Assembly (NCBI RefSeq): GCF_030684675.1
Contig: NZ_JAUXXZ010000066.1
Coordinates: 18,728-82,727 of the forward strand
Length of the DNA stretch: 64,000 nt
Reading direction: 5' to 3'
Source of the DNA: Daejeonella sp.
Lineage (GTDB): Bacteria > Bacteroidota > Bacteroidia > Sphingobacteriales > Sphingobacteriaceae
The notes below the pieces were generated by a model. The model had not been told where the DNA came from. It worked only from the letters and a program-made list of their open reading frames with translations, and did no database searches. Positions 1-35,065 of this stretch are shown piece by piece. Each line of letters begins with the position of its first letter. Position 1 is the first letter of the stretch. The translations under genes were made by a program, and so were the position numbers.

Positions 1-781
1 CGACATACTTCTTTTTACCCATTAAAATTCCAGCACTCTGAGGACCGCGCATAGCCTTGCCACCTGAAATTACAACCAAATCAAAGCCCATATCATTGAA
101 CTTCCAAAGATTTTCAACAGGTGGTACGTCTGCAGCAATATCAATCATTGTTGGAAGATTATACTTTTTACCCAATTCAAGCCATTCTGCATGCTTGATC
201 TGACCTACATGAACTTCGCGGTTCAAAAACCACAGCATAGCCGTATTCTCATTGATTGCAGCCTCAACTTCTGCCCGGGTTTCGACTTTGATCAGCTTTA
301 CTCCAGCCTGGGTAAGGGCATGATCATAACCCATCGAATGACTCTTTTGAAGAATCACTTCCGATTTCATCCCGGTTCCTGCAAGATTTGGTACCTGACT
401 TACCCGCTTGGAATCCATCCCTGTCAAAACACCTGCCATACCCAGCATCAATGCCGACCAGCAACCTGCAGATACCAATGCTGCTTCTGCATGGCACATC
501 TGCGCAATCCGTTCACCCACCTTCTCCTGCACATCATCAACAAGAGCAAATTTCTTTGATGCTCCATTAATTGCTTCCATAACTTCAGGTGGCATCAGGC
601 AACCCGACATAACTGTGTAATTGCCTGCGGCGTTTATAAAAGTTCGGATACCCAGCTCTTTGAACAGATCGCGGCCCGCTGCTGGTGCAGAAAGCATGTT
701 ATTAAGTGGTGCAGCTGTCGCTGTAATCCCACCAGCCAGCGGAAGCAGGGTGAGGGATTTTAAAATTTCTCTGCGTTTCAT
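1..781 (-). CDS. SelA/DgaE-like PLP-dependent enzyme, short form, Tat signal (partial, runs off the left edge)
   Basis: Not in the ORF track. Manual translation from ATG at 781 gives MKRREILKSLTLLPLAGG...DLFKELGIRTFINAAGNYT...DIAADVPP...SGGKAMRGPQSAG, collinear with 907..2118 and retaining the PLP-lysine motif SGGK. Confidence 0.9.
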   Translation of the reverse strand, partial: MKRREILKSLTLLPLAGGITATAAPLNNMLSAPAAGRDLFKELGIRTFINAAGNYTVMSGCLMPPEVMEAINGASKKFALVDDVQEKVGERIAQMCHAEAALVSAGCWSALMLGMAGVLTGMDSKRVSQVPNLAGTGMKSEVILQKSHSMGYDHALTQAGVKLIKVETRAEVEAAINENTAMLWFLNREVHVGQIKHAEWLELGKKYNLPTMIDIAADVPPVENLWKFNDMGFDLVVISGGKAMRGPQSAGILMGKKKYV

Positions 782-906
782 TATTGAGATTATTTACTAT
801 TAATTACTTATTATTCCTGTAACAGGAGAATCATAAAATTCAATATTTATAAAATTTAAGGCTCTCTATGCGATAAAATTTAGAAAACCAACTTCTGGGG
901 TATTGT

Positions 907-2118
907 CTAAACATGTGCTTTGAAAAGCTCCTCTCTTATTCTTGATGCTACAATTTTAACCTCATCCTTTTTCAGCATATGAGAGGTTACGTTAATGCTT
1001 CCTGCGGGACCGCCCATTACTTCAATGGATGGGTTTCCATTCCGTAGGTTGACCGCCAGATTTTCTAATCTGATTTTTGATTTATCCCATGATATATTCA
1101 GGGTAGGAATACGATTAATCAATGGCAAAGGAATCAATTCGGCCTTTACTCCCGGAACGGAGGCAGCTTCTTTTGCAATGACAGCTATTCTGTCTTCGAG
1201 CATTTTCCATTCCTTTTCCTGATCTGTATTAATAAAGTGCTCTAAAGCGATATATAAACCAAATATTTCTTCCTTATTCACCTTCATTCCACGGCCAATG
1301 TTTGATCCCCTCGGAGGGGCACTCATTCTGGCCGCAGCAATAAGTTCTTTCTTTCCGCTCAGGATTCCTGTGCTTTGAGGCCCTCTCATAAATTTACCTC
1401 CTGAAACACAAACCAAATCAAAACCCATATCATGAAACTTCCATAAATTTTCTTTTGGTGGAAGATCAGCAGCCATATCAATCATGGTTGGTATCCGGTG
1501 TTTCCTGGCAAGCTCAAGCCATTCTTTATGCTGTATTTTACCCAGCGAAGACTGATAATTTATAAAATACATCATGGCAGTCCTATCACTGATTGCCTTC
1601 TCCAACTCTTCGACTGTTTCCACAGTGATTAATTTCACACCACAATTGGTCAGCGCATGAGCATAACCATCATTATGAGCCTTCTGCAGGATCACTTCAG
1701 TTTTCATAGCTGAACCCTCAAGTCTGGGGATTTGAGAAACCTTCTTTTGGTCGGTTCCACTAAGTACTCCTGCCATTCCAAGCATCAGGGCAGAAAATGC
1801 ACCGGCAGTGACCATGGCCGACTCAGCATGTAACAGACTGGCAATCCTTTCTCCCACTTTATCCTGCACCTCTTCAAGCCTGCAAAAAGATGTTGCAGTT
1901 TCACGAATTGCATCAGCTGCATCATGCTGCATTAAAGATCCGCTGAGGCTTGTAAAATACCCCGAAGCGTTGATGAAAGTTCTTAATCCAAACTCCTTAA
2001 ACAAATCACGTTTTGATGAAGGAGCCGCCTGAGCGGATTGTACCAACGAACCGGAATTCCCTATCGCGCCTGCAAGCGGCAACATGGTTAAGGTTTTGAG
2101 AATTTCCCTGCGCTTCAT
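907..2118 (-). CDS. SelA/DgaE-like PLP-dependent enzyme (fold type I), short form, Tat signal
   Basis: INASG..T.LSGS, DMAAD and SGGKFMRGPQSTG motifs; N-terminus MKRREILK followed by a hydrophobic stretch and AQA. Confidence 0.88.
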   Translation of the reverse strand: MKRREILKTLTMLPLAGAIGNSGSLVQSAQAAPSSKRDLFKEFGLRTFINASGYFTSLSGSLMQHDAADAIRETATSFCRLEEVQDKVGERIASLLHAESAMVTAGAFSALMLGMAGVLSGTDQKKVSQIPRLEGSAMKTEVILQKAHNDGYAHALTNCGVKLITVETVEELEKAISDRTAMMYFINYQSSLGKIQHKEWLELARKHRIPTMIDMAADLPPKENLWKFHDMGFDLVCVSGGKFMRGPQSTGILSGKKELIAAARMSAPPRGSNIGRGMKVNKEEIFGLYIALEHFINTDQEKEWKMLEDRIAVIAKEAASVPGVKAELIPLPLINRIPTLNISWDKSKIRLENLAVNLRNGNPSIEVMGGPAGSINVTSHMLKKDEVKIVASRIREELFKAHV

Positions 2119-2141
2119 TGATTCAAAAGTATAGATAGCAA

Positions 2142-3395
2142 TTATTTAGTAAGATCCGGAAGCGGGTTTACAATGCCATTAAGGTCATAAACAATTTTAC
2201 CTCCGAATATGGTCATTTCACATTCAAGCTTTTCATCACTGTCCATTTTAAAGCCCTGCATGTCATAAAAACCAAATTTTCCTTTTCTCATGCCAAGAAT
2301 AGCGACATCCGCGATAGCACCTTCAGTAAGATGGCCAAGTTGTGGACGGTTGATTGCCTTGGCCGGAGCCCAGGTACTCGCATTAATCACCTCAGGAAGA
2401 TCCATTCCCAATTTCAGGAATTTAGACATTACTAAAAGCATATCTTTCATTGAACCCTTCATACTGCTGATGTGCAGATCCGTACTGATTGTATTGGGGT
2501 GGAAACCGGCTTTTGCAGCTGGAATCGCCTGGGAATATCTGAAACTTGATCCTCCATAACCCACATCAAAAATGACTCCTCTCTTCTGAGCTGCCATCAC
2601 GAAAGGCTTTAAAGCTTGTTTTGCTGTATCTACAATAGCCTCTTTTGTATCAAGTAATTCACCAAAAGTATGGGTAAAGATATCTCCGGGGCGCAAGCGC
2701 TCCATTAACAAAGAGTATAGGGAAAGACGAGGCTTGGTTCCTCCAAAATCGATCATAACAGGCATATTTGCCAATTTACCTGCAGCCACACCACGATCCA
2801 CATTCGTAAAATCGGGACTTGTAAAATGGGCGACTTTAATACCTACAACATGCTCCTTATAAGCCAAAGCTGCTTTTGCAGCGACCTGAGCATCCATATC
2901 AGTAGTATTTTGCTCAATAACACCACCCCGCATACCATTACCAACGATATTCAAGAATGCCAGTACGCGCGTTTGAGAATTGTCAATAATATTCGTTTTA
3001 AAAGTCTGGAAATCTCTCCAGCCCGACCCTCCGGCATCCACAACAGTAGTTACTCCGACGCGCTGATAAAAGCCGTCAGGCATTATACTGTTAAATCCAT
3101 TACTGTACATATGGTTAGGCTCAGTTCCTGCAAAAACATGACCGTGAATATCAATCAGCCCCGGAGTTACATACATCCCTGAAGCATTCACCACACTACT
3201 TGCCTCAGAAACATCAATGCTTAAGGCTACTTTTGCGATCTTACCATCTTTAATGGCCACATCCATAACACGGTTTATATTATTTTTTGGATCAATAACA
3301 TGCCCGCCTTTAATAATAATGTTGTAAGGTTTTGTTTGTGCGAAAAGCGCAATTGGTAACAGGATACTTACAAAGAAAATACAGAACTTCCTCAT
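2142..3395 (-). CDS. Amidohydrolase/deacetylase-family metallohydrolase (COG3964/EF_0837-like), Sec signal
   Basis: IKGGHVIDP, PGLIDIHGH, GVTTVVDAG, KVAH, RPGDIFTH and ISTDLH motifs; signal peptide ending ALFA-Q. Confidence 0.88.
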   Translation of the reverse strand: MRKFCIFFVSILLPIALFAQTKPYNIIIKGGHVIDPKNNINRVMDVAIKDGKIAKVALSIDVSEASSVVNASGMYVTPGLIDIHGHVFAGTEPNHMYSNGFNSIMPDGFYQRVGVTTVVDAGGSGWRDFQTFKTNIIDNSQTRVLAFLNIVGNGMRGGVIEQNTTDMDAQVAAKAALAYKEHVVGIKVAHFTSPDFTNVDRGVAAGKLANMPVMIDFGGTKPRLSLYSLLMERLRPGDIFTHTFGELLDTKEAIVDTAKQALKPFVMAAQKRGVIFDVGYGGSSFRYSQAIPAAKAGFHPNTISTDLHISSMKGSMKDMLLVMSKFLKLGMDLPEVINASTWAPAKAINRPQLGHLTEGAIADVAILGMRKGKFGFYDMQGFKMDSDEKLECEMTIFGGKIVYDLNGIVNPLPDLTK

Positions 3396-3480
3396 TTTAA
3401 TTGTTGATTCTAAATGTTTACGAATTTGATAATTGAAATAAATTTAATAATACCAGTTTAACAGAAAGTCTGAACTGTTA

Positions 3481-4779
3481 TCAGTCCAATCTTTTTCCGT
3501 TTTTATCCCATCCTTTGCTAAAAAAATGCGATTCTGGAGAGCTGAGGTAACGTACCCGTGACAATTCAGGTGTCTCCAATATTTTATATCCCAAGATACG
3601 GGATTCAAGTGCAAAATCCAAGATGCCACTGCTTAGCATGGTTCGCTCAACCGGGTAAGGAGCCTTACCTGTCTTGAACATGATCTCCATGTTTTTAACA
3701 AGACATCCGAAATGATAATGCGGTTTTCCGGCCTGTAATTTCATGAGTGTAGAAAATGGCTTTTGCTGACCTTCGATATCTATCGCATAAGTAAAGTCCT
3801 GAAGCAGGCCGGTAAGCAGAAATGCAGCAGCCTTCAACCCATCATTATAATCGATAATAAACACTGCAGGCTTTTTCACTAAGTCTCTCATGCTACCTGC
3901 CACCCGCGTTTCACTGTGTGAAATTGCCAGATCAAAAAGCCGTTTTACCCATTCATTCTGGTCAATGAAGTTCCAGCAATCCTGTCCTTCGAGACATTGG
4001 ACTGCACGAACACCTGTTTCACCCCCCTTCCTTCTTTCAACCACTGCCTGCAGCCCGTCGAGTAGATGAAAGCCATAGATATCAAGTCCGCTGAATGAAA
4101 TTCCAACTGCATATTTTTGCTTTGCCCCATAAGGAGTATCCACCGCAGGAATACGCCAGGAAACAGGAATAGTAGATCCAGCTAACATCGGAAATTTCAA
4201 TTCTTTGGAAATTTCAACCATACGTTTAGCCTGTCTCCAGCTCCATGAAAGGTGCTTATCGTTGAATACCGGGACCGACTTCTTATACTGACGGAATACA
4301 TCAGTAATCTTCAGAAACATTTCAAATCTTGGATACAGTTTTTGCTCCTTATCATTTGTGGGATATACTCCATGTTCGCCGATAAGTATAACTCCATCAA
4401 CAGCAAGCTGATTACCGCCCAAAGTCAGGGCATCTGCCACTGTTCTAAAGATTGGAACATTGTATTTCTTTGCTAATGGGCGACTCATATCATTATCAGG
4501 AACCTGTTCTGTAAAAATCGAAACGATCTTTGAATCAGGGTAAGGAGCCATCTGATCCTGATTAAAACCTTCAAGATATTTTCCGATAATTACATCGGCA
4601 TGTGAACCAGGACGATATTCAGTAATAATTGCTGCAAGCCGTTTTGGTCCTGATTGAAATTCCGGCTTATAATCCGGCATTTCTTCAGCCTGAACCGACT
4701 GGAAAGGCAATACAGCACCTGTTACAGCTCCGGAAACCGGTAAAACTGAGAGGTATTTAATAAGTTCTCTGCGCTTCAT
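3481..4779 (-). CDS. Uncharacterised Tat-exported protein, distant Gfo/Idh/MocA-like oxidoreductase
   Basis: MKRRELIK Tat motif; VDGVILIGEHG and PVFNDKHLS segments resemble Gfo/Idh/MocA Rossmann regions, but there is no clear GxGxxG. Confidence 0.5.
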   Translation of the reverse strand: MKRRELIKYLSVLPVSGAVTGAVLPFQSVQAEEMPDYKPEFQSGPKRLAAIITEYRPGSHADVIIGKYLEGFNQDQMAPYPDSKIVSIFTEQVPDNDMSRPLAKKYNVPIFRTVADALTLGGNQLAVDGVILIGEHGVYPTNDKEQKLYPRFEMFLKITDVFRQYKKSVPVFNDKHLSWSWRQAKRMVEISKELKFPMLAGSTIPVSWRIPAVDTPYGAKQKYAVGISFSGLDIYGFHLLDGLQAVVERRKGGETGVRAVQCLEGQDCWNFIDQNEWVKRLFDLAISHSETRVAGSMRDLVKKPAVFIIDYNDGLKAAAFLLTGLLQDFTYAIDIEGQQKPFSTLMKLQAGKPHYHFGCLVKNMEIMFKTGKAPYPVERTMLSSGILDFALESRILGYKILETPELSRVRYLSSPESHFFSKGWDKNGKRLD

Positions 4780-4826
4780 TTCTTTTAAAAAAGGAATATT
4801 TGACTGTGAATTAAATTAAAAAACAA

Positions 4827-4866: not shown

Positions 4867-4880
4867 CTGATCATAAAAAA

Positions 4881-6434
4881 TTACTCTTTATCCCACCAAA
4901 CACGACTTAGAAGTGTATTATCACCACTTTGTCTTGCTTTGGCTGCCAGGAAGTTCTCTCTGTTCAAAGTTTCTTCTGATTCAGGTACAATATAACGACG
5001 CGGAATTCTCCCACCTGTGATATTTCCAGGATAATTAGTTGGAATTAACACAGGATATCCTGTACGTCTCCAGTTAGAGAAGTTTTCTATCTGGTCAAGA
5101 TAACCCAATACCCAGCGCTGAGTAGAGATCTGCTCAAGCTTCTGCTCAAAGGTACCTGCAGCAAGGAACGGATTATATTTCAGATAGGTTGTTACCTTAT
5201 CGGTAGAAATTGCACCTCCCGCTCCATAAAGCGACCATTGTTTCATGGCAGAACTTACACCATTATTATAAGAAGTTGTGGCATTTCCGGCATACCAGCC
5301 TCTGATTGAGGCTTCAGTAAGCAAAAAATGAACCTCTGCAGCACCCATCACTATTACCGGAGCATCATATCTCATCACCGTATTTGGATTTGGCTCAGAA
5401 TAAGTTTCAAAATCCGCAGGATATCCGTTAAACTGCGCATTTTTCATACCTTTTTGCAGGGCAGTTGCTGTATCAGCCACATATCCTCCACCAGATTGTT
5501 TGACCCATAAAACTGAGATCACATTCAAACGCGGATCTTTCGTAGTTGTTGAATTCCCTTTCAGGTGATCAATAAAACGCTGAGAAATTTTTGAACCCTG
5601 AACGTTTAATGGGTTCTGTCCGTCAACATAATCCAACACCCGCATTTGTTCTGAGAATGGATTTCTGTTACTTAACAGTCCACCATCAGCATAAGGTGCT
5701 CTTGTAAGGTCTGCATCATCAATAATCGGACCACCGGCAATTGCCTTTTCTACCCAGGTTTTAGCAAGTGCTGCATCAATTTTTGTCAAACGCATTCCGA
5801 GTCTCAGCATCATTGAATAAGCGAACTTTTTCCATTTTACAGTATTTCCATCATAAAACAAGTCTGAATTTCCATAGGTTGCTTTAGATGCATCAAAAGC
5901 TAAAGCTGCCTCTTCAAGTTCTTTGAACATATCCTTGTAGATATCAGATTGCAGATCATATTTAGGCTGGTATTTAGCTTCCAGACCTTTCAAAGCCTCA
6001 GTATAAGGTATGTCTCCGTAAAGATCTGTTAATTGATGAACGATATAAACACGCCAGATTCTGGCAGCTGAGAGCTTATTGATGTTTGCAGGATCCTTCC
6101 TGGTTTCATTAATCACCAGTTGTATCTGATTCAAACAACCGGAATAAGCAGACCAGTTATTTCTCACATAACCTTCAGCGAAATACTTATCACCCGGTGC
6201 TGTTACCTCACTGTAGGTAGCTTCCTGCTGCAGCATTTGCATATTGTTGAAACGATTACCATTCGGGTTTAATCCGATAGCACTCAATTGAGCCTTTGTA
6301 AACAGAAAATTAGCATTTACACTTTCGTAAGCATTCGGATTCTTATTAAGCTCTGCTAAATCCTTTGTACATGATGACAAAGAAATCGCTAATATAAGAG
6401 CCGTATATATTGGTTTAAAACTTAGATTTTTCAT
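4881..6434 (-). CDS. susD: SusD/RagB-family lipoprotein
   Basis: Lipobox ISLSS-C, DLYGDIPY and W..WRRTGYP motifs, C-terminal RVWWD; adjacent to SusC. Start placed at MKNLSF (the ORF track starts at 6455). Confidence 0.93.
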   Translation of the reverse strand: MKNLSFKPIYTALILAISLSSCTKDLAELNKNPNAYESVNANFLFTKAQLSAIGLNPNGNRFNNMQMLQQEATYSEVTAPGDKYFAEGYVRNNWSAYSGCLNQIQLVINETRKDPANINKLSAARIWRVYIVHQLTDLYGDIPYTEALKGLEAKYQPKYDLQSDIYKDMFKELEEAALAFDASKATYGNSDLFYDGNTVKWKKFAYSMMLRLGMRLTKIDAALAKTWVEKAIAGGPIIDDADLTRAPYADGGLLSNRNPFSEQMRVLDYVDGQNPLNVQGSKISQRFIDHLKGNSTTTKDPRLNVISVLWVKQSGGGYVADTATALQKGMKNAQFNGYPADFETYSEPNPNTVMRYDAPVIVMGAAEVHFLLTEASIRGWYAGNATTSYNNGVSSAMKQWSLYGAGGAISTDKVTTYLKYNPFLAAGTFEQKLEQISTQRWVLGYLDQIENFSNWRRTGYPVLIPTNYPGNITGGRIPRRYIVPESEETLNRENFLAAKARQSGDNTLLSRVWWDKE

Positions 6435-6458
6435 CTTGAAAATTTTAGATAACATTAA

Positions 6459-9954: not shown

Positions 9955-9959
9955 CTTTG

Positions 9960-10063: not shown

Positions 10064-11242
10064 TTAAGGCATAACGACAACCTCCTTCCCATCTAGTCTA
10101 AAGTGAATATTACTTTTCTGAAGTATTTCCAACACCTCCAAAAGGGTCAGATTTGTTGCTATGGCACCTTCAAAATGTTGTTCCGGTAACACCCCTTCAT
10201 ATCTGGCAGTTATCCCGTACCACCTGCCCAACTGACGCATAACTGTTTCGATACGGGCATTTTCAAAATAGAAATAACCATCTTTCCAGGCCACTTCAGC
10301 CTGAGTGTCCTTTCTTTGTATTCTGATATCCCTGTCAACCTTTGATTGCTCACCTGGTTTAAGTATTTGAGATTTTTTTGTATTTAATTCTATCACCCGA
10401 ACAGCTCCTTCAATCAGCGTAGTAGTAATAGAGGGCTCATCAGAATAGGCATTGATATTAAAATGAGTACCAAGCACTTCAACTGTCTGATTTCCAGACC
10501 GAACTGAAAATTTTTTATCATCATTCTTGGAGACTTCAAAATAAGCTTCTCCTTTTAGCTCAACCTCGCGTGTATCTCCGGCAAAAAACACCGGAAAACG
10601 CAAAGAAGAGGCAGAGTTCAGCCATACCTTACTGCCATCTGCCAGATTTAACTGAAATTTTCCGCCAACTGGTGTTTGAATGGTATTATACACTGTTTGA
10701 ATTTCTCTTTTCTCAGTTAATGACTGTTCATTAGCTGATTTACTGAGTGTATACTCAATGATACCTTTTGAATTCTTATGGATCTTGATTCCACCCTGAT
10801 TAATCAAAACCCCGTTTTGTGAATCATCCAATACAATCTTCTTTCCATCAGAAAGTGTGAGAATTGCTTTAATCCCTCCTGGCTGAATATCTTCTACTTT
10901 TTGCTTTGCAGCTACTTTTACAGGAACCGGAGCAGTTTGAATCTGATCATTCTTAAAATAGAAATACAATCCACTTGCCAGAAAAATGAGGATAGTGGCC
11001 GCTGCGGCCAGGGAAGAATATCTACGGTAAACAGGTACTTGCCTTTCTGCCAACTCAGGCAAATCAATTTTTGAAAAAATAAATGATTTCAGATTTTCCT
11101 CATCCTCCTGTGGGTCAAAATCCCATTCCGAATCCGTGTTCATTTCAGAGCGATACCACTGAAACAATTTTTCAGTTTCTTCAGCTGAAGCAGAGTTATG
11201 AAGATACTTTTCAACTAATTTTTGAATTTCTTCTCGTTGCAT
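10064..11242 (-). CDS. fecR: FecR-family anti-sigma factor
   Basis: One TM segment, LADGSKVWLNSASSL, LKGEAYFEV and VEVLGTHFN motifs; lies between an ECF sigma and susC. Confidence 0.92.
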   Translation of the reverse strand: MQREEIQKLVEKYLHNSASAEETEKLFQWYRSEMNTDSEWDFDPQEDEENLKSFIFSKIDLPELAERQVPVYRRYSSLAAAATILIFLASGLYFYFKNDQIQTAPVPVKVAAKQKVEDIQPGGIKAILTLSDGKKIVLDDSQNGVLINQGGIKIHKNSKGIIEYTLSKSANEQSLTEKREIQTVYNTIQTPVGGKFQLNLADGSKVWLNSASSLRFPVFFAGDTREVELKGEAYFEVSKNDDKKFSVRSGNQTVEVLGTHFNINAYSDEPSITTTLIEGAVRVIELNTKKSQILKPGEQSKVDRDIRIQRKDTQAEVAWKDGYFYFENARIETVMRQLGRWYGITARYEGVLPEQHFEGAIATNLTLLEVLEILQKSNIHFRLDGKEVVVMP

Positions 11243-12036: not shown

Positions 12037-13701
12037 CTAAATCAAAAAATTACCTCCCTGTGGTCTTCCTTTTGGATAAATTACAGGCTTTTTGACAATT
12101 TCAGATTTAGTTCTTTTGGCGCTAAACTTTGCCGAAAGAAATTCATGCATATCTATTTCTCCGAAAACCGATTCAGCACTGACTATACCTTTAAATGTGG
12201 TTTGAATCCTATCACCCGGTATCACCCAGGTACTTTGCATTTTAATCTCATTCCCTTCAATTGTCCCATTTATTTCACGCTCCGAAAAATCAGATATGTG
12301 AACTCCTGAAAAATAATTTCCGTCCTGCCGGTCAATAAACAGATGTTGCTTATCAAGACTATTATAAAACTGCACTTCCAGATTCCAGCGTCCCAGCATA
12401 TTTACGGATGGAGCCTTCATTGCCACAATGGGTTTCGGACTTCTTTTCCTTGCAATAACCTCCCTAATACGGGATGCGGCGATCTTATCATCTCCGGGAA
12501 CCATCATATATCCTACCAAACTGATTCCGGTCAGACCAGGTTCATCTCTATAGATGGCAACCCCAACTCGTGGAAAGGTATTTCCCAATTCTTCAGAAAC
12601 CTCCTGACCAGTTACATGAAGTTCATCCGGATTCCAGGTTATAAATAAATAAGGTGTTACATGATGTATCAATTTCGGGTCGGGCATTCTGATACGATAA
12701 CTAACCCCCTTCACTGTTGCAGCCTGCTTTCCAATATTTTCGAGCCAGTTTACCCAGTTTTGCATCTCCTTTTTATGATCCATCCCTACCCAGGTTTCTA
12801 CTGCTGCAAGCATGCCGATATGTTCTTCGCGGGCCACTTTGTTATCACGACCAGGACCATGATGTGGGGCTGCAGCCTGCCATGTAGACATCAACAGATC
12901 CTTTCTTCCTAATAAAAGTCCGCAACTGCCGGGAGCCTTAAGGCCCTTTCCACCACTAAAAGCAACCACGTCAGCTCCTCTCGATAAATGATCATTCGGA
13001 AATGTAAGAATGTGCGCAGCAGCATCAACAAAAACCGGAACATTTAAAGGTTTAGCGATTTTTGAAATAATCTCAAGTGGCAAAAAAGATTCCTTTTCAG
13101 CATCTATATAAATCATGGCTGTTTTCGGACCAATTTTCTTCCTTAGATCTTCTTCATTCTCAACAGTAATAATTGTAGCTCCTGTACTTCTTATAGCCTG
13201 ATCATAAACTGTGCGTGAAGCTTTTGGAATGATAACCTCTGTTTTTTCGAATCCCCTCAAATCAGGCATTCGGACTAGTTTTTCGGGATTACCGCCTGAT
13301 AAACATGCGAAAGTACAAAGCTTAATTCCGGCCGCTGCACCAGAAGTTACCAGCCCCCACTCTGCTCCCGTCAACTCTGCAAGGCGCTTACCTACTCCCT
13401 CTACCAATTCATCCATCTGCACATTCAGGGTAGAAACAGCCTCCATAGCCAATCTCACTTCTGGTCTTGCCACCGAACCACCCATGATTGTATTTGTACC
13501 TTTGCAATTGATAAAAGGTTCAACCCCAATAGACTTTAAAATTTTGTGTCCTCTTTCGGCAAGTTCAGCATCCGGAGTTTTCGAAACTCCGGATAAAAAA
13601 GCAAATCCATTTTTACTCTGAGATGCTTCACTCTCCAACACTGATGCGTTTGAAGCAAAAGGGAGCAGGGTCAGGCCCTTAATTATATCTCTGCGTTTCA
13701 T
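12037..13701 (-). CDS. SelA/DgaE-like PLP enzyme, long form with extra C-terminal beta-rich domain, Tat signal
   Basis: MKRRDIIK; INCKGTNT.MGGS, VDAAA and SGGKGLKAP motifs; about 130-aa C-terminal extension. Confidence 0.85.
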   Translation of the reverse strand: MKRRDIIKGLTLLPFASNASVLESEASQSKNGFAFLSGVSKTPDAELAERGHKILKSIGVEPFINCKGTNTIMGGSVARPEVRLAMEAVSTLNVQMDELVEGVGKRLAELTGAEWGLVTSGAAAGIKLCTFACLSGGNPEKLVRMPDLRGFEKTEVIIPKASRTVYDQAIRSTGATIITVENEEDLRKKIGPKTAMIYIDAEKESFLPLEIISKIAKPLNVPVFVDAAAHILTFPNDHLSRGADVVAFSGGKGLKAPGSCGLLLGRKDLLMSTWQAAAPHHGPGRDNKVAREEHIGMLAAVETWVGMDHKKEMQNWVNWLENIGKQAATVKGVSYRIRMPDPKLIHHVTPYLFITWNPDELHVTGQEVSEELGNTFPRVGVAIYRDEPGLTGISLVGYMMVPGDDKIAASRIREVIARKRSPKPIVAMKAPSVNMLGRWNLEVQFYNSLDKQHLFIDRQDGNYFSGVHISDFSEREINGTIEGNEIKMQSTWVIPGDRIQTTFKGIVSAESVFGEIDMHEFLSAKFSAKRTKSEIVKKPVIYPKGRPQGGNFLI

Positions 13702-20145: not shown

Positions 20146-20776
20146 AATAAAATGTTTTAACCAAGGACAATTCAATGCCTGACATTTATCATTCTAATTA
20201 AATGGTATTTACGTTAAACAATTTCGACAAAAAAATATTGATTTCTAATTTATTTTAGATTTTACCTTAATAAGGTCCCGTCATACTATGAACAGTGGAA
20301 AGGATCACATTCAACCTGAGTATAGAATTATGGATTATGTATTCCCAATCCAATAAAAATGCTTGTATTGCATAATCCCAACTTATCAAAAAGAGATGAT
20401 GGTTGAAAACACCTAATGTAATATTTGATCTAAAATTGCCTAAAGGCCTGTGATCTTTTATCAGTAATCAAAAGTATAATTGAGAATTTTGATTGCCTGA
20501 AGATTATAAATATAAAACTGCATCAAACAGTTGAAAGAAAAAATAGATTACCCAATACTTATAAAAAAAGATTTTAATACTTATACCTATTTGAGCATTA
20601 ATAAATCAATATTGAAACTCAAATAAATTTAATTTACAATCTTTTAGTTAAAATGTTTTGACTTTTAACTTGGAAAAATGATTCTATAGATTCTGTTTCC
20701 GGATATTAATCATCCTTTTAAAGCTTTGGAAATTTATTAAGCAAAAGTTCAAAAAAGCCATAGGAAGGGTTATTGC

Positions 20777-23386: not shown

Positions 23387-24958
23387 TTATTTCTTTTTTA
23401 ATGGTACAAGCCGAACAATGTGTCCCGTATCTTCGATCATTAGGTAAATAAACCCATCTGATGGAACCTTTACATCCCTTATTCTACCAATATTTTCGAG
23501 GAGTATTTCATCATGTACTGGCTTCCCATTGTTAAAAACTGTCCTATTCAATCTTTTATGTACCATCGCTCCAACAAACAAATTACCTTTCCACTCTGGA
23601 TAAATATTGCTAAACACGAAGTCAAAGTCAGAAGGTGCAATAGAAGGTGTCCAATGATGGGCAGGTGCCTCAATTCCCACTCGAACTGTATCCCCGGAAA
23701 TAAGAGTACCATCATAGTTTCTGCTAAAAGTTACATCTGGCCAGCCATAGTTCCCTCCTGATTTTAGCAGATTTAGTTCTGAGCCACCCATTTCACCGTG
23801 TTCAGTTTCCCAAATTTCTCCCGTTAACGGATGTCTGATCAAACCTTGTGGTTGACGATGACCATAGGTATAAATTTCAGGTAGTACCTTTAAACTATCA
23901 ACAAATGGATTATCATTTGGTATCGTTCCATCATCTTTAAAACGCATTACCTTACCCGATGGATTTGTTTTATCCTGAACTGTTTTCCACCTGTGCCGAT
24001 CATCTATTGTGCGCTGTCCTACGGTGAAATAAAGAAACCCATACTTATCAAAAGCAATTCTGCTTCCGAATGTTTCACCTCCTTCTTTAAAGGGACCAGC
24101 TTTATAGATTATTTTTTCATCGAAAAAATGATTTCCAGTAAGCTTAGCCCTCATTAGTACAGTATAGCCCCCCTCAGGTTTTTTAGGTTCTATGTAATAG
24201 GACAAATAAATCAATCCATTCCTGGAAAATTGAGGATGTAACTTCAGATCGCGTAAACCCTTTGGTACATTACCGGAAACAGAATTAGCCACCAACTTGC
24301 CATCTTTAACTATTCTGAGATTTCCTGAGCGCTCAGTGATCAACACTCTATTATCGTGCAAAAACGCCATACTCCAGGGTCTTTGCAGACCCGAAACAAC
24401 TGTATCAACCATGAAAACTAATTCCTCAGAAGATATAGCATTGATAACTTTTTCGGGAATTGGAAAGTATTTACTCTTAAATCTGCTCTCAATGTTAAAA
24501 TCAGATACTGGAAGTAAATTTTTTGGTTTCGAAACAACTCGTGCATTTTTTTCAGAGACTAACTGCCTGATATAAGACACTAGTTGCCATCTTTTCTCAG
24601 CAGATAATGATTCCTTATAAGATGGCATACTTCCTCTGCCTTCGGATAGCTTCCAAAAGAGCGCTCCATCCTTTTGATCAGAAACAAGTGGAAGATGAAA
24701 ATTTGCTGGTTTAACCGATAATTCGCCACCAAGTACCCCATTTCCATAGCCTGTATCTCCATGGCATGATTGACAATACTGTAAATAAAGTTCCTTTCCT
24801 TGTACCAGGGTATTTGGGTTCTGACGAAATGTCGATTTTAAGCCATCTGTCCATGCAGGAGCTTTCCAGGGTTCTTGCAGCGGTTTCAAACTGAGAAGTA
24901 AAACCAAAACAATAGCAGATGAGAAAAGTACGCTGATGAAAATATTGTTTTTATTCAT
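23387..24958 (-). CDS. Cytochrome c fused to a PQQ-dependent sugar dehydrogenase (GSDH/Asd-like) propeller
   Basis: N-terminal hydrophobic segment, CQSCH haem motif with distal GSMP; LQRPWSMAF, GHRQPQG, GGNYGWP and GRIRDV motifs. Confidence 0.82.
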   Translation of the reverse strand: MNKNNIFISVLFSSAIVLVLLLSLKPLQEPWKAPAWTDGLKSTFRQNPNTLVQGKELYLQYCQSCHGDTGYGNGVLGGELSVKPANFHLPLVSDQKDGALFWKLSEGRGSMPSYKESLSAEKRWQLVSYIRQLVSEKNARVVSKPKNLLPVSDFNIESRFKSKYFPIPEKVINAISSEELVFMVDTVVSGLQRPWSMAFLHDNRVLITERSGNLRIVKDGKLVANSVSGNVPKGLRDLKLHPQFSRNGLIYLSYYIEPKKPEGGYTVLMRAKLTGNHFFDEKIIYKAGPFKEGGETFGSRIAFDKYGFLYFTVGQRTIDDRHRWKTVQDKTNPSGKVMRFKDDGTIPNDNPFVDSLKVLPEIYTYGHRQPQGLIRHPLTGEIWETEHGEMGGSELNLLKSGGNYGWPDVTFSRNYDGTLISGDTVRVGIEAPAHHWTPSIAPSDFDFVFSNIYPEWKGNLFVGAMVHKRLNRTVFNNGKPVHDEILLENIGRIRDVKVPSDGFIYLMIEDTGHIVRLVPLKKK

Positions 24959-25707
24959 TATTGAAATTTAAGCAAACCAAAAAATTGAGGGAGATGGAAT
25001 GTAGGCTTAGGTGCATCTATCACCGACCAGGTTGCATGGTGAGGATTTGAATTTATTTCTGCGATTTTGTAAAAATTAGCTCTCCAAATTACTCCCTTTT
25101 CAGGGCGAGCTACCTTCGAATAATTTTCGAGCATATTAATTGGAATTTTATACTCTACTGTCCAGGTTATGGGTTCTGATATTTCAGGATCTACCTGACT
25201 AGGAAGTGAATGTCCTATGGTGATTTTCTTAATATCTTCAATTACAGGCCGTTTACGTGGTATAGAATTATATCCCAATAAAGGTGTCCCACCACAATTT
25301 ACCTCAAGATTAAAATAACTCTTAGGCATAGCTGGATCCGGTGAAAAAAAGAATTCAACGGCTGAATCTTTCCAAACAGGTCCGTTAATCTCAGTAGTTA
25401 TACTTCTTACATAACGATCCTCCACCCTAAAAATAACATATATATTTTCATTATCATACATCAGCTTTGCATTTACGCGGGGACGAAATTTCGGATTTTC
25501 ACGGATGAAATTATTGACCTCGATAGGCTTTACTTTTCGCCATTGAGGTTTATTCCAATTCCCATCTATCTTTAGCTCATGCTTTAACCTAATAACCTTA
25601 TATGTTTTCGCTTCATTTTTTAAGTTTAAAGAACTTTCCTGAGCGCTGGCCATTTGCGGAATCCACAAACTCAGAATAAGGATCAATGTCAATTTATAAG
25701 TATTCAT
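24958..25707 (-). CDS. Carbohydrate-binding family 9-like (DOMON/CBM9-like) secreted protein
   Basis: KIDGNWN..W, YDNENIYV, VWKDSAVEFF, YFNLEVN and WRANFYK motifs; stop overlaps the next start (TAATG). Confidence 0.75.
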   Translation of the reverse strand: MNTYKLTLILILSLWIPQMASAQESSLNLKNEAKTYKVIRLKHELKIDGNWNKPQWRKVKPIEVNNFIRENPKFRPRVNAKLMYDNENIYVIFRVEDRYVRSITTEINGPVWKDSAVEFFFSPDPAMPKSYFNLEVNCGGTPLLGYNSIPRKRPVIEDIKKITIGHSLPSQVDPEISEPITWTVEYKIPINMLENYSKVARPEKGVIWRANFYKIAEINSNPHHATWSVIDAPKPTFHLPQFFGLLKFQ

Positions 25708-25866: not shown

Positions 25867-27423
25867 TTAATTTTTATCCCACCAAAGAGGTGTTGAAGCT
25901 AAATCAGGTCCCCCCAAAAGAGCTACTGCATCTTTCACAGCCTGCCCGTTCCTATCCTTGTCATATTCAAGAAATACAATGCGACGTACAAATTTCCCAA
26001 CTGGAACATCGGGATTATCCGAATTAATCACATTATATCTTTTGGGAAAGCCTGATCTCCTGACCTCGGCCCAGGCTTCCTGTCCATCAGGGAATAAAGC
26101 CAGCCATTTTTGTGTTCCAATCTGTTCTCGCTGCTTAGTTGGATCACTAGAAAATTTTACAGGAATATCACTTATAGCAGGAGTATTAAAATATCCTCCG
26201 GGAGCAGAGGGAAGATTAGTACTATTTATATAACTATTAATAACTGTTACATCGGTAATGCCATTCGTTCGCATAGACATTTCAATACCTTTGGCATATA
26301 ATTCAGCCGCAGTCCCGCCCATGTTCCAGCCATTTACGGCACCTTCTGACCGGAGTAAATACGCTTCGCCAGAACGAATAACCGTCATTGGCTCGGTAGT
26401 CATTTTAACTGGTGTAAAACGGTCGTTTAGATTAGAAGCGTTATTATATCCATTTTGAGGTAAAACAATTTGAGCTGGAATCATCCCATTTCTTAACCCA
26501 CGGTATTGCTTATCATTAACAGCTGGTTGAAAATAGCTACTAAGGCGTGGGTCATCATAGCCTTTCAAGAAGCTCTCCATAGTTTGGCTCATCCTGAATT
26601 CATTCCAAGCTGAGATAAATCCAAGGGCATTCGGACGGGCGGGATCAACTTTCAAATAGGCATCATCAGCAACAACTGTCATAACACCGTTAGCAACGGC
26701 TGCCTCAGCCTCAGTCTTTGCTTTAGCAGCATCTACTTTGGAAATTCTCAACGCAAGACGTAGACGTAACGTATTTGCAAACTTAAGCCATTTGGCATTA
26801 TCCCCGTTGTAAATCAAATCCTGAGATCCATAACCAGGTAGTGCAATATTATTTTTAAGATCAGCACTTGCTTCGGTTAATTCCTTGAAAAAATCGTAAT
26901 AGATATCCTTCTGTGAGTCATAAGCAACTGCTTTTTCCGTAGAGCCAATTTTTGAGTAAGGTACAGGTCCATAATAATCTGTAATACGCATTAAACTAAA
27001 TACTTTCCAAATTCGCGCAATTGCATTCAAAGGTTTAGTTTCGGGTGTCTGTGTTTGCTTAATAATTGTTAATAATGACGGCATGGTAAATACATATGAC
27101 CGTATCCAATGATTTTGTAAGCGAGCCTGAGTTAAATCAAAACGATCCGATGCGAAGGATGTTTGAGTTACAGCAAAATACTGAGCATATAAATCAGCAA
27201 ATGCGTTCACTCCTCTTTGATATTGTGTTCCGCCGCCCAGAGCAACTCCCTGCCATTGTGCATTTGGGAACAGACCCTTCAAATCAGTTGGACTTAATGT
27301 CGTAACGGCTGTAGGGTCGGTATTTCTTTCGTCAAACTCCTTTGTACAGCTACTCAGAATAGCTGCAGCAAGCACTAAAAATAGCATATTAAGCTTTAAC
27401 GGAATATTTATATAATTTTTCAT
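25867..27423 (-). CDS. susD: SusD/RagB-family lipoprotein
   Basis: Lipobox AILSS-C, DYYGPVPYS and EAWAEVRRSGFP motifs, C-terminal PLWWD. Confidence 0.93.
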   Translation of the reverse strand: MKNYINIPLKLNMLFLVLAAAILSSCTKEFDERNTDPTAVTTLSPTDLKGLFPNAQWQGVALGGGTQYQRGVNAFADLYAQYFAVTQTSFASDRFDLTQARLQNHWIRSYVFTMPSLLTIIKQTQTPETKPLNAIARIWKVFSLMRITDYYGPVPYSKIGSTEKAVAYDSQKDIYYDFFKELTEASADLKNNIALPGYGSQDLIYNGDNAKWLKFANTLRLRLALRISKVDAAKAKTEAEAAVANGVMTVVADDAYLKVDPARPNALGFISAWNEFRMSQTMESFLKGYDDPRLSSYFQPAVNDKQYRGLRNGMIPAQIVLPQNGYNNASNLNDRFTPVKMTTEPMTVIRSGEAYLLRSEGAVNGWNMGGTAAELYAKGIEMSMRTNGITDVTVINSYINSTNLPSAPGGYFNTPAISDIPVKFSSDPTKQREQIGTQKWLALFPDGQEAWAEVRRSGFPKRYNVINSDNPDVPVGKFVRRIVFLEYDKDRNGQAVKDAVALLGGPDLASTPLWWDKN

Positions 27424-30841: not shown

Positions 30842-30853
30842 ACTTTTACATGT

Positions 30854-30967: not shown

Positions 30968-31035
30968 GATGTTTTAGGGCGGTAATTTCTTATACATGGT
31001 ATATTTTTTTATTTTAAACAACTTCTATTCAATTA

Positions 31036-32052: not shown

Positions 32053-32172
32053 AATCTAAAATTTTAAATAAAGGTGATTTCCTCCTCTATCCATATCTAT
32101 ATAATAAAGACAGGCGAGAAACAAAAAAGGGTTAGTCAAAAAAAAATATTCTCAATCAGATAGAAATTCTGA

Positions 32173-32754: not shown

Positions 32755-32889
32755 TTATTAGCCTGATTTTTGAAAAGTTGATTCCAATATAAAATTTTAC
32801 ATTTTAAATACAAAGAATTGATACTTGTTCGTTACAATTCTAAATGCAGCCACCGGACGATAGATATATTTTTTGAGAACATCCTATTT

Positions 32890-33357
32890 TTATACATATC
32901 CAATACAATCAATCTCAATAATCGATCGACCCGGAATTCCTCCTTTAGCAACTGCAACAGTTGAGCGAACTGGTGTTTTTTTACCAAACCTTCCTCTGTA
33001 TACCTCATTCATCCCATCAAAATCAGCCATATCACTTAAAAATACGGTGACTTTCAATACCTTTTCCATCGAGGAGCCTGCAGCAAGCAATCTCTTCTCC
33101 ATCTTTTTTAGTACAAAATCAGTATCAGCCTTGATTTCAAAAACGGATTCCGCATCTGCACCGGTCCCTGAGACAAAAACCAGATTTCCATATCTTATAG
33201 ATCCGGGATACAAGGTAACATCCGGGGATGTACCTGTACTCAAAAACGGGGCATCATTGTTTTGGGGAGTCTGGGACTGAGCCACCAGACTATATCCTGC
33301 AAGTCCGGCAATGGTTGAAAAAAGGCTGGTTATAACTGATCTTCGTGTTGATTTCAT
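32890..33357 (-). CDS. ridA: RidA/YjgF-family protein with Tat-like signal
   Basis: LVFVSG, KVLKVTVFL, PVRSTV (catalytic Arg) and IEID motifs; N-terminus STRRSVITSLF. Confidence 0.85.
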   Translation of the reverse strand: MKSTRRSVITSLFSTIAGLAGYSLVAQSQTPQNNDAPFLSTGTSPDVTLYPGSIRYGNLVFVSGTGADAESVFEIKADTDFVLKKMEKRLLAAGSSMEKVLKVTVFLSDMADFDGMNEVYRGRFGKKTPVRSTVAVAKGGIPGRSIIEIDCIGYV

Positions 33358-33403
33358 AGCCTGTTGTATTATTTATTGAATTCTTTAAAATTTAGCGGCC
33401 TGA

Positions 33404-35065
33404 TCAGGTTGCCAATGGCGGACCTGCAGGAATATTCACTTTTCTTCTTGGCGCTTTCTGCACATTTCGTTTAGCTGTGAATTTAGCTGTGCGGTACTCA
33501 CCGAGATGAATATCACCAGACATGCTGTCTCCATTTACAATCCCTGAAAACTGATAGGACAGATCATCACCCACAATTCGCATAGCACTTTGCATCATGA
33601 CCCGATTTCCCTCAATTGTCCCACTCATACTTCCTGATTGAAATTCAGTCTTATGTGTTCCGCTCAACCAATTGCCATCCTGCACGATATTTAATGAGTG
33701 CTGACTGACACTACTGAAAAACTGAACGCTTAAGTCCCAGCGCCCGCTAAGGTTAGCTACAGGTGCCATCATGCTTTCAGGTTTAGGATTACGCTTTTTC
33801 GAGAAAATTGAAAACACTCTTTCTGCTACAATTTTTTCCTCTCCGGCCTGCATTTGCCCGGTGGTGATATTAAAAAAACTCTCCCCGCTACTATCATCCT
33901 CTGCCCAAACCGCAATTCTGGGTTTATTTCTTCCCAGTTCTTCAGCAAGTTCAAACCCGCTGATATGCAGTTTTTGGGGATCCCAGCTAATTTTTAATAC
34001 TGGCGTTTTATTATCAAGTAAGATGCGTTCAATCACTTCTAATTTCAAACCCGAAATCGGGCTTAATCTTTTTGAAATAGTATCCAGCCATCCCAACCAT
34101 TTCTTCCAATCGGCATCATGGTCACGCTTTACCCAGTCTTCTACTGCTGCCATCATCCCAACCATCTCTTCTCTGCCTACTTTATTGTCGCGGCCCGGAC
34201 CATGATGCGGAGAACTTGCCTGCCATGCAGACATTAAAATAGATTTATCACCCAGCATTAAACCAGCGCATTGGGGTCCGCAAATTGCCTTTCCACCACT
34301 GTACGCAACAATTGTGGCTCCTCTCTTTAGATGGACCGGTGGTAAAGTCAAATTCTCTGCAGCGGCATCAATTAATACCGGTACCTGGTGTGGTTTAGCT
34401 ATCTGCGAAATCACTTCAAGTGATAATGGCTGTCCGGTAAATGTATCTGTATCGGTCGAGCGGATATAGATCATTGCAGTACGTGGATTAATTGCCTTCC
34501 GAAGCTCATCCGGTGTTTTCACACTCACAATTTTAACTCCAATGTTTCGTATGGCATGATCATAGGCATTCCTTGAAAAATCTGGTATAATCACTTCATT
34601 CTTATCAAAACCACTCAAATCAGGAATACGGATTAATTTCTCGGGATTTCCTCCTGTAACGCAGGCAGCTGTGATATGTTTAAGTCCGGCAGCACATCCC
34701 GCCGATACCATACCCCACTCAGCACCCGTAAGATCAGCCAGCCTCTGACCAATTCCATCGGCCAGTTCATCATACTGCACGAAATTATGTGCAGCTGCCT
34801 CCATAGCTGCACGAACGGAAGGACGCTCTAAAGAACCTCCAATAATCGTAAAAGTCCCCATACAATTGATGACAGGTTCGACACCAATGGAACGAAAAAT
34901 ATTTGCTTCATCCATGAAAGCTGAATTTGCTGACTTGGATGTTGATGTTTCAATTATGTTATTACTACCGGCAACTTGAGTATTTGCCTGTACAGATTGA
35001 TTTCTAAGCACAGTTCCTGCGAACGGAAGCAGTGTTAATCCTTTAATTACGTTTCTTCGTTTCAT
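33404..35065 (-). CDS. SelA/DgaE-like PLP enzyme, long form, Tat signal
   Basis: MKRRNVIK; INCMGTFT.IGGS, IDAAAE and SGGKAICGPQCAG motifs; C-terminal beta-rich domain. Confidence 0.85.
   Translation of the reverse strand: MKRRNVIKGLTLLPFAGTVLRNQSVQANTQVAGSNNIIETSTSKSANSAFMDEANIFRSIGVEPVINCMGTFTIIGGSLERPSVRAAMEAAAHNFVQYDELADGIGQRLADLTGAEWGMVSAGCAAGLKHITAACVTGGNPEKLIRIPDLSGFDKNEVIIPDFSRNAYDHAIRNIGVKIVSVKTPDELRKAINPRTAMIYIRSTDTDTFTGQPLSLEVISQIAKPHQVPVLIDAAAENLTLPPVHLKRGATIVAYSGGKAICGPQCAGLMLGDKSILMSAWQASSPHHGPGRDNKVGREEMVGMMAAVEDWVKRDHDADWKKWLGWLDTISKRLSPISGLKLEVIERILLDNKTPVLKISWDPQKLHISGFELAEELGRNKPRIAVWAEDDSSGESFFNITTGQMQAGEEKIVAERVFSIFSKKRNPKPESMMAPVANLSGRWDLSVQFFSSVSQHSLNIVQDGNWLSGTHKTEFQSGSMSGTIEGNRVMMQSAMRIVGDDLSYQFSGIVNGDSMSGDIHLGEYRTAKFTAKRNVQKAPRRKVNIPAGPPLAT

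Follow-up and report, generated by a model that had tools for sequence, protein, structure and literature searches.

A SusCD-fed locus of exported pyridoxal-phosphate enzymes and deacylases in Daejeonella sp. that may catabolise N-acylated amino sugars in the periplasm

Salmonella DgaE is a pyridoxal 5'-phosphate (PLP) enzyme whose residues Lys213 and Asp189, His162-His163 loop and cluster of Arg301, Arg332 and Arg346, proposed to bind the 6-phosphate, serve here for comparison (PMC9529869). In this enzyme His163 protonates the enamine, so that the enamine is not released, and the His162-His163 loop is strictly conserved and acts as a stereospecific proton donor (PMC9529869). In the Ong pathway of Pseudoalteromonas prydzensis ACAM 620, which deals with chitin oxidised by lytic polysaccharide monooxygenase (LPMO), a deacetylase, a PLP deaminase that yields 2-keto-3-deoxygluconate (KDG), an essential RidA and the kinase KdgK handle 2-(acetylamino)-2-deoxygluconic acid (GlcNAc1A) (PMC9537276). 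The locus described here lies in Daejeonella sp. and brings together exported relatives of DgaE, amidohydrolases and RidA proteins with two SusC/SusD importers. The window, meaning the whole stretch of 64,000 nucleotides that was analysed, corresponds to contig C62:18728-82727 (NZ_JAUXXZ010000066.1). Within 2..35065 an open reading frame (ORF) listing and Pfam/NCBIfam scans recovered all 24 co-oriented minus-strand genes of the initial annotation: five DgaE/SelA-like PLP enzymes, four COG3964 amidohydrolases, two RidA, one PIG-L deacetylase, one PF10282 lactonase, one cytochrome c-GSDH fusion, one CBM9_2 protein, one protein without family match and two sets of extracytoplasmic function (ECF) sigma factor, FecR, SusC and SusD. 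Full-text literature searches turned up no account of a comparable system in Bacteroidota, and no characterised system of this design is known from the phylum.

We read the locus as a group of SusCD-fed modules, controlled by ECF sigma and anti-sigma factors, that serve the periplasmic catabolism of N-acylated amino sugars of the N-acetylglucosamine (GlcNAc) type, probably covering more than one epimer and acyl group; the probability that we give to this reading is roughly 0.55. In the proposed route the substrate would be imported via SusC/SusD, and its anomeric carbon would be oxidised by cytochrome c-linked dehydrogenases of the soluble glucose dehydrogenase (sGDH) type with CBM9/DOMON-like partners. 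Lactonases would then open the lactone to a 2-acylamino-aldonate, chemically an N-acyl-D-amino acid, from which the COG3964 amidohydrolases would remove the acyl group, while the PIG-L deacetylase would act on the sugar itself. Tat (twin-arginine translocation)-exported DgaE-like PLP lyases would eliminate the 3-hydroxyl to give an enamine/imine, which Tat-exported RidA would hydrolyse to ammonium and a 2-keto-3-deoxy-aldonate. Finally, the keto acid would be taken up by a transporter of the bile acid:sodium symporter (BASS/SBF) type, or in sister loci by a DgoT-like member of the major facilitator superfamily (MFS) or by DctA, and be handed to a cytoplasmic KDG kinase and a 2-keto-3-deoxy-6-phosphogluconate (KDPG) aldolase encoded at contigs C51, C40 and C4. 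Gene content, leaders, PLP residues, the loss of the phosphate site and co-occurrence across phyla were computed; which substrate is used, in what order the steps follow and what each enzyme does are what we infer from them.

The PLP enzymes of the window come in a short and a long form:

2..781, minus strand: PLP enzyme, short form, N-terminal 260 amino acids inside the window (full gene C62:18288-19508, 406 amino acids); Tat leader MKRREILK; TIGR01437 115.7 bits
907..2118, minus strand: PLP enzyme, short form, 403 amino acids; Tat leader; TIGR01437 166.6 bits; DgaE structure 7LC0 at E 4e-25; PLP lysine and aspartate kept
12037..13701, minus strand: PLP enzyme, long form, 554 amino acids, with C-terminal beta domain; Tat leader; TIGR01437 125 bits
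16032..17687, minus strand: PLP enzyme, long form, 551 amino acids; Tat leader; TIGR01437 124.6 bits
33404..35065, minus strand: PLP enzyme, long form, 553 amino acids; Tat leader; TIGR01437 148.5 bits; 7LC0 at E 5e-30

All five matched TIGR01437 at 115-167 bits (E 1e-33 to 1e-49), under its curated cut-off of 385, and NF047797 at 100-140 bits, under its cut-off of 600; they also matched fold-type I families (SelA, Aminotran_5). The nearest solved structures were Salmonella DgaE (7LC0, E 4e-25 to 5e-30) and Cap15 (8T7J, E 8e-21 to 6e-24), and these two characterised relatives both act on sugar-derived beta-hydroxy-alpha-amino acids. In the same way, a Foldseek search with the AlphaFold model of the long form at 33404..35065 (pLDDT 85) gave a TMt of 0.87 to 7LC0 and of 0.86 to 8T7J (E 5e-27).

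All 18 PLP paralogues of the genome were aligned with DgaE, the C-terminal region with its arginines being aligned with moderate confidence. Equivalents of Lys213 and Asp189 are invariant in the 18 paralogues, with the Schiff-base lysine in an SGxK motif, an invariance that leads one to expect catalytic competence. The phosphate cluster is lost: Arg301 and Arg346 are kept in none of the 18 and Arg332 in six long forms only. The disappearance of Arg301 and Arg346 argues against phosphorylated substrates, and a missing phosphate site would fit a compartment that lacks ATP. The His162/His163 loop is likewise absent from every paralogue, and the lack of His163 would give a simple reason for the dedicated, exported RidA partners. 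The long forms possess in addition a confidently predicted C-terminal domain of eight antiparallel beta strands (residues 441-533 in the enzyme at 33404..35065). This domain and the C-terminal tail that goes with it (P.GPPLAT) are conserved from Bacteroidota to Acidobacteriota and have no counterpart in DgaE or Cap15. In a tree of the paralogues the short and long forms split with full support, but substrate classes are not separated; the short forms collapse into a polytomy, and reading epimer specificity from the tree was abandoned for that reason.

Deacylation and imine hydrolysis would be ensured by seven further products of the window:

2142..3395, minus strand: COG3964 amidohydrolase/deacylase; Sec leader; NF006689 432.8 bits; Protein Data Bank (PDB) 8JE0 'Amidase' at E 2e-45, also 2ICS and 2OGJ
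13757..15031, minus strand: COG3964 amidohydrolase; Sec leader; NF006689 418 bits
15331..15804, minus strand: RidA; Tat leader TERRSVLKK; PF01042 75 bits; catalytic arginine motif PARTT
17869..19110, minus strand: variant COG3964 amidohydrolase; Sec leader; NF006689 352 bits, under cut-off
19120..20175, minus strand: PIG-L/LmbE-type de-N-acetylase, 351 amino acids; Tat leader from an internal ATG (MKRRNFLEK); PF02585 70.9 bits
22107..23357, minus strand: COG3964 amidohydrolase; Sec leader; NF006689 426 bits
32890..33357, minus strand: RidA; Tat leader STRRSVITS; PF01042 67.9 bits, TIGR00004 70 bits

The curated cut-off of NF006689 (PRK09237; the EF_0837 and Atu3266 group) is 371 bits, and three of the four window copies exceed it. 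Inspection of three amidohydrolases found the HxH metal motif after strand 1 (DIHGHV, DIHVHV, DMHAHH); the enzyme at 17869..19110 has DIHSRLGS in its place, where other copies read for instance DIHGHVFAG; this variant is perhaps mononuclear or has no catalytic function. Both RidA proteins carry, also by inspection, the conserved arginine of imine hydrolysis (motifs PARTT and PVRST). As for the PIG-L enzyme, its nearest solved structures are the archaeal diacetylchitobiose deacetylases 3WL4 and 8BGO (E 4e-22), a kinship that points to GlcNAc or chitobiose-like substrates.

The initial annotation had stated that all enzymes of the locus bear predicted export signals, and a Tat or Sec leader was indeed found on each when the translations were read by eye. 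Twin-arginine leaders of the MKRRxxxK type head every PLP enzyme, both RidA proteins, the PIG-L enzyme and the protein without family match; Sec-type leaders were seen on the amidohydrolases, the lactonase and the CBM9-like protein, and the cytochrome c-GSDH protein begins with a hydrophobic segment that serves as anchor or signal. The genome also encodes TatC. Moreover, the twin-arginine leader is retained in nearly all relatives of the PLP enzymes, including those of Acidobacteriota.

These genes also recur outside the window. Searched for ORFs in all six frames, the genome of 4.25 Mb yielded 18 DgaE-like proteins, all with an MKRR leader, and the same genome encodes 24 COG3964 amidohydrolases with Sec leaders; at least 42 of its genes belong to these two core families, spread over at least 10 loci, most of which have ECF/FecR/SusC/SusD genes. 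Within the genus, 14 of 18 genomes of other species hold 4-18 copies, and 12 genomes from other families of the class hold none. A scan of relatives, with one genome per species, gave more than 500, and neighbourhoods were counted in the best 80, their neighbours being labelled against the annotated proteins of the window genome. These 80 are 52-89% identical to the long PLP form (most of them 55-73%) and come from Sphingobacteriaceae (Daejeonella, Pedobacter), Chitinophagaceae, Cytophagales, Saprospiraceae, Flavobacteriaceae, Bacteroidales, Acidobacteriota and Chloroflexota. A COG3964 amidohydrolase accompanies the long PLP enzyme in 52 of the 80 loci. Dehydrogenase-like cytochrome c (27 loci), CBM9_2 (21) and RidA (20) follow, then RraA-like aldolase (14), BASS transporter and Amidohydro_2 (11 each), cytochrome c-GSDH, YjgF-type RidA and SGL lactonase (9 each), and PF10282 lactonase and the KDPG aldolase Eda (7 each). 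The CBM9_2 protein recurs next to dehydrogenases.

Several of these loci contain genes for the later steps. For instance, a single contiguous operon in a metagenome-assembled genome of Bacteroidia (L044) encodes a dehydrogenase-like cytochrome c, an SGL lactonase, an amidohydrolase, a long PLP enzyme, a Tat-RidA, a secreted RraA-like protein, a small protein, a BASS transporter, a PfkB KDG kinase and a KDPG aldolase. Its kinase matches the kinase half of NF041633 at 495 bits and a model of KDG/2-keto-3-deoxygalactonate (KDGal) kinase at 209 bits, and its aldolase (Eda) reaches 368 bits with NF005499, exceeding the cut-off of 275. In another locus (L038) the order is SusC, SusD, short PLP enzyme, amidohydrolase, DgoK (PF05035), Eda and a DgoT-like MFS transporter. 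The window genome has the same gene set in its C40 locus, together with a sulfatase, a Tat-exported enolase of the galactonate-dehydratase family and a BNR protein, and a kdgK-eda pair at C51.

Oxidation and lactone opening would fall to the following genes, listed with the secreted CBM9_2 protein and the protein that matched no family:

3481..4779, minus strand: Tat-exported protein; no Pfam, NCBIfam or PDB sequence match
20777..21910, minus strand: seven-bladed beta-propeller lactonase (PF10282, 370 bits); Sec leader; 6-phosphogluconolactonase models at 204 and 190 bits, under their cut-offs
23387..24958, minus strand: cytochrome c (CQSCH; PF13442) fused to an sGDH/Asd-type propeller (PF07995, 341.6 bits)
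24958..25707, minus strand: secreted CBM9_2 (DOMON-like) protein; PF16011 124.7 bits; PDB 4JPQ (uncharacterised) at E 6e-24

The cytochrome c-GSDH protein is related in the PDB to 7CDY (E 3e-58) and to Escherichia coli Asd, 2G8S (E 2e-54). The protein at 3481..4779, labelled 'oxidoreductase-like' in the initial annotation, has a predicted GFO/IDH/MocA-like fold (AlphaFold pLDDT 74), and Foldseek matched it at E ~1e-13 (4e-13) and a TM-score of about 0.5 with the NAD-dependent glycoside hydrolases 8QC8/8QC5, with KanD2, with inositol dehydrogenases and with the Tat-exported glucose-fructose oxidoreductase (GFOR) of Zymomonas. The label is fair as far as the fold goes, but the glycine-rich NAD motif (GxGxxG) is not visible, and with that and the TM-score of about 0.5 a classical GFO/IDH/MocA oxidoreductase was rejected. 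Its homologues at 97% identity are assigned to Daejeonella. All named proteins among the matches listed for it, out of 7,535 homologues, are 'hypothetical'; four further paralogues with Tat leaders lie at C7:55642-60184 (three in tandem) and C62:9204-10574. The same protein qualifies the description of the locus as glycosidase-free. No domains of glycoside hydrolase (GH), polysaccharide lyase (PL), kinase or phosphotransferase system (PTS) type were found by Pfam/NCBIfam among the 24 window proteins, and none of GH, PL or carbohydrate esterase (CE) type in all 38 genes of the longer string described below. The description holds for the classical GH/PL families and less well for this protein, whose model matches NAD-dependent glycoside hydrolases and which is, on its predicted structure, the sole possible candidate for a non-classical glycoside-cleaving enzyme.

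Import and regulation are represented by two complete sets:

4881..6455, minus strand: SusD-like lipoprotein 1; PF12771 263.9 bits, PF12741 203 bits
6459..9971, minus strand: SusC-like TonB-dependent transporter 1; Plug, CarbopepD_reg_2 and STN signalling domain
10064..11242, minus strand: FecR-type anti-sigma factor 1; PF04773, PF16344
11340..11897, minus strand: ECF sigma factor 1; Sigma70_r4_2, Sigma70_ECF
25867..27423, minus strand: SusD-like lipoprotein 2; PF12741 407.7 bits
27473..30841, minus strand: SusC-like TonB-dependent transporter 2; TIGR04056 632.6 bits
31036..32052, minus strand: FecR-type anti-sigma factor 2; PF16344, PF04773
32173..32754, minus strand: ECF sigma factor 2; TIGR02985 155.9 bits

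The left boundary that had been placed at base 1 turned out to be an artefact of the window. The string runs on through 14 more co-oriented genes (C62:427-18727, about 18 kb), which makes a whole of 38 minus-strand genes over 53 kb with intergenic gaps of mostly 10-150 nt. Its first gene is the PLP enzyme at 33404..35065, and its right end is marked by a divergent DEAD-box helicase gene. From the window edge outward the left flank contains:

C62, left flank, minus strand: amidohydrolase, YjgF-type RidA and short PLP enzyme
C62, next, minus strand: BASS/SBF transporter; TIGR00841 194 bits, PanS-like 181 bits
C62, next, minus strand: M81/MlrC-like peptidase, without signal peptide
C62, next, minus strand: gamma-glutamyltransferase (GGT)
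C62, next, minus strand: paralogue of the unannotated GFO-fold protein
C62, next, minus strand: dehydrogenase-like cytochrome c of 590 amino acids and a second CBM9_2 protein
C62:427-6468, minus strand: four cytoplasmic-type genes, namely 3-hydroxyacyl-CoA-dehydrogenase-like, class-III aminotransferase (GntE/HemL-like), FAD/iron-sulphur (FAD/FeS) D-2-hydroxyacid dehydrogenase and 3-hydroxybutyrate dehydrogenase

By way of speculation, the four cytoplasmic-type enzymes might handle freed acyl groups such as 3-hydroxybutyryl or lactyl. In the closest relative locus (L003) the block from ECF sigma factor 2 to the lactonase is missing, and the locus therefore appears to be built of separable modules. 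Between the lactonase and PIG-L genes lies an AT-rich gap of 600 nt (20176-20776, GC about 0.34) without noteworthy ORF, and an Rfam scan of the window gave no match.

Other neighbourhoods of the genome deserve mention beside these. RraA-like genes with Sec signals, of the family of 4-hydroxy-4-methyl-2-oxoglutarate/4-carboxy-4-hydroxy-2-oxoadipate (HMG/CHA) aldolases or oxaloacetate decarboxylases, directly adjoin BASS genes at C4:31987-38836 and C47:38543-40817, and at C4 the RraA-like gene is followed by genes for an Eda-like aldolase, a xylose-isomerase-like TIM barrel and a D-2-hydroxyacid dehydrogenase. Such RraA-like/BASS neighbourhoods hint that some modules end in keto-dicarboxylates or periplasmic pyruvate. 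A secreted protein of about 143 amino acids, which by the look of its sequence may be of the SnoaL/DUF4440 type, is encoded at C4:35332-35763 and, after the BASS gene, in 11 related loci (e.g. L005, L015 and L044). Finally, five or six tandem enolase-superfamily genes (galactonate/mannonate-dehydratase-like), all with twin-arginine leaders, lie at C74:38872-49994 next to an RraA-like gene with a Sec signal; the group looks like a periplasmic battery of sugar-acid dehydratases.

How far does the evidence carry a periplasmic, non-phosphorylative deacylation and deamination to a 2-keto-3-deoxy-aldonate, as the initial annotation had proposed? The 18 paralogues, with PLP lysine and aspartate kept and phosphate arginines and His loop lost, strengthen the proposal, and so do the L044, L038 and C40 contexts, the recurrence of dehydrogenase-like cytochrome c and of two lactonase families, and the kinship of the PIG-L enzyme. 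Other observations weigh against it. In the cytochrome c-GSDH protein the general-base histidine is missing, the motif reading GETFGS, with threonine, against GNHFGG in both E. coli Asd (2G8S) and 7CDY; where the motif is seen in orthologues fused to cytochrome c and in the paralogue, it reads GDWFGS, with tryptophan and likewise no histidine. The absence of this catalytic residue makes oxidation the weakest link of the model. No match to pqqC (TIGR02111) was obtained in the genome, nor in any of the control genomes. The reaction type of the PLP enzymes is deduced from homology, their scores with the DgaE-family models lying far under the curated cut-offs. SusCD systems normally import oligomers, yet the locus has no classical glycosidase. 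A GntP-type permease, kdgK and eda to the left of the window had been named as features that would support the model; a BASS/SBF permease is there, but neither kdgK nor eda adjoins the window on that side, and it is the L044, L038 and C40 loci that contain Eda together with KDG kinase (L044) or DgoK (L038 and C40). In addition, GGT, the signal-less M81 protein, the class-III aminotransferase, 3-hydroxybutyrate dehydrogenase and the FAD/FeS 2-hydroxyacid dehydrogenase of the string, as well as the M19 dipeptidase of sister loci, fall outside the scheme. These peptidase-type and redox or aminotransferase genes may handle freed acyl or peptide substituents, or they may mark modules for peptide-linked or D-amino-acid material.

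The latter possibility leads to the main rival, namely that the locus serves to break down material of peptide or N-acyl-D-amino-acid type, for example stem peptides of peptidoglycan, non-ribosomal peptides or N-acyl-D-Ser/D-Thr. In that case the amidohydrolases would be D-aminoacylases or dipeptidases, the PLP enzymes D-Ser/D-Thr-type dehydratases finished by RidA, and the dehydrogenases and lactonases unrelated neighbours. In favour of this, amidohydrolases of COG3964 and its relatives remove acyl groups from derivatives of D-amino acids. OngC-type deaminases accept D-Ser and D-Thr too (PMC9537276), the string contains GGT and the M81/MlrC-like peptidase, a Tat-exported M19 dipeptidase stands first in the C4-type sister locus and is also present in 8 of the 80 related loci, and the dicarboxylate transporter DctA comes after one sister locus. 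Nevertheless, the commonest partners across phyla are not peptidases but sugar-dehydrogenase-like cytochrome c, the two lactonase families and CBM9-like proteins, and several loci are completed by genes for KDG kinase, DgoK, Eda or DgoT-like proteins. The PIG-L enzyme being nearest to chitobiose deacetylases, and both characterised PLP relatives using sugar-derived amino acids, we hold this explanation to be unlikely. A rather different proposal, to which we give a still smaller chance, keeps the amino sugars and does without hydrolysis: oligomers of chitin, chitosan or peptidoglycan would be shortened from the reducing end through oxidation to the aldonate, N-deacylation and a PLP-dependent beta-elimination (or the resulting 2-keto-3-deoxy product with its beta-alkoxy group) that drives off the remaining chain or a 3-O substituent, e.g. 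the lactyl-peptide of N-acetylmuramic acid (MurNAc). What is known of PLP-dependent beta-elimination in general, and of alkaline peeling, makes such leaving groups plausible. The two SusCD importers without any GH or PL in 38 genes would be accounted for, as would the many paralogues per locus; the extra beta domain conserved in the long PLP form could hold a glycan, the D-2-hydroxyacid dehydrogenase and peptidase-type genes could process a released lactyl-peptide, and the GFO-fold protein resembles NAD-dependent eliminative glycosidases. However, glycosidases encoded elsewhere in the genome could provide monomers, DgaE itself eliminates hydroxide only, and operons of the L044 type, which are without SusCD, resemble monomer pathways.

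A last alternative concerns the PLP enzymes alone, which could be Cap15-like, O2-dependent oxidases or decarboxylases that turn beta-hydroxy-alpha-amino acids into amides or aldehydes in an oxic periplasm. Cap15 is structurally as near to them as DgaE, as the Foldseek values for 8T7J given above indicate. The tight and repeated pairing with RidA points, on the contrary, to an enamine/imine product, and the KDG/KDGal kinase and aldolase genes downstream fit a 2-keto-3-deoxy acid rather than a decarboxylated amide, so that we find it very improbable.

If the catabolism of N-acylated amino sugars in the periplasm is what these loci serve, many widespread bacteria of soil, fresh water and the sea, namely Bacteroidota along with Acidobacteriota and Chloroflexota, would degrade outside the cytoplasm compounds that make up, in chitin, peptidoglycan and microbial necromass, a major pool of organic nitrogen. 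No ATP would be needed, with electrons passing straight to the respiratory chain and with ammonium and acyl groups freed in the periplasm. It would define a class of SusCD-fed loci devoid of carbohydrate-active enzymes (CAZymes), which prediction of polysaccharide utilization loci (PULs) based on CAZymes overlooks, and offer a clear example of Tat-exported PLP enzymes and of periplasmic RidA. Functions would also be gained for big families now labelled 'selenocysteine synthase-like', 'dihydroorotase-like' or hypothetical. Should chains be shortened by elimination instead, Tat-exported PLP lyases would take over the role that glycoside hydrolases play in every known PUL. With at least 42 core-family genes in this genome, cultured relatives, among them Daejeonella rubra DSM 24536 with its locus L062, would lend themselves well to experiments.

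Compared with known systems, the locus shares with canonical Bacteroidota PULs the adjacent SusC/SusD genes, here in two pairs, and the ECF sigma/anti-sigma control through the STN domain of SusC. Canonical PULs carry at least one CAZyme, whereas here GH, PL and CE are replaced by PLP lyases, amidohydrolases, RidA and redox enzymes. The periplasmic oxidative routes, such as pyrroloquinoline quinone (PQQ)-dependent Asd/YliI of E. coli and the Tat-exported glucose-fructose oxidoreductase of Zymomonas, resemble the proposed one in the C1 oxidation of an aldose to a lactone followed by a lactonase, and in the Tat export of a cofactor-loaded enzyme. The dehydrogenase of the locus differs from theirs in its fusion to cytochrome c and in lacking the catalytic histidine of its family, and deacylation and PLP-dependent deamination are foreign to those routes. 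Archaeal Dac, the diacetylchitobiose deacetylase of the PIG-L family that is nearest among solved relatives to the PIG-L enzyme of the locus, is cytoplasmic and partners an exo-glucosaminidase, whereas the enzyme of the locus is longer (351 amino acids), Tat-exported and set in another gene context.

The Ong pathway offers TonB-dependent import across the outer membrane and the same logic of deacetylase, PLP deaminase, RidA and KDG kinase. Its enzymes are cytoplasmic, however, and OngC is a non-homologous enzyme of fold-type III, while the PLP enzymes here are exported and of fold-type I; it also relies on a GH20 (OngA) and on external LPMO for oxidation, whereas the present locus has neither GH20 nor kinase and would apparently oxidise with its own cytochrome c-linked dehydrogenases and lactonases. 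With the Salmonella DgaE route it has in common homologous PLP enzymes, their fold and PLP lysine and aspartate, the proposed alpha,beta-elimination of a 2-amino-3-hydroxy aldonate and, in related loci, a KDPG-type aldolase. DgaE is cytoplasmic and encoded in an operon with PTS and KDPG aldolase genes; the enzymes of the locus are exported by Tat, no PTS gene accompanies them and no phosphorylation would precede deamination. The 6-phosphate arginine cluster and the His162/163 loop of DgaE are missing, half of the paralogues bear the extra C-terminal beta domain, and genes for RidA, amidohydrolase, dehydrogenase and lactonase are attached. What is unusual with respect to known amino-sugar-acid catabolism is thus the location, the export of PLP enzymes and RidA, and the PUL architecture.

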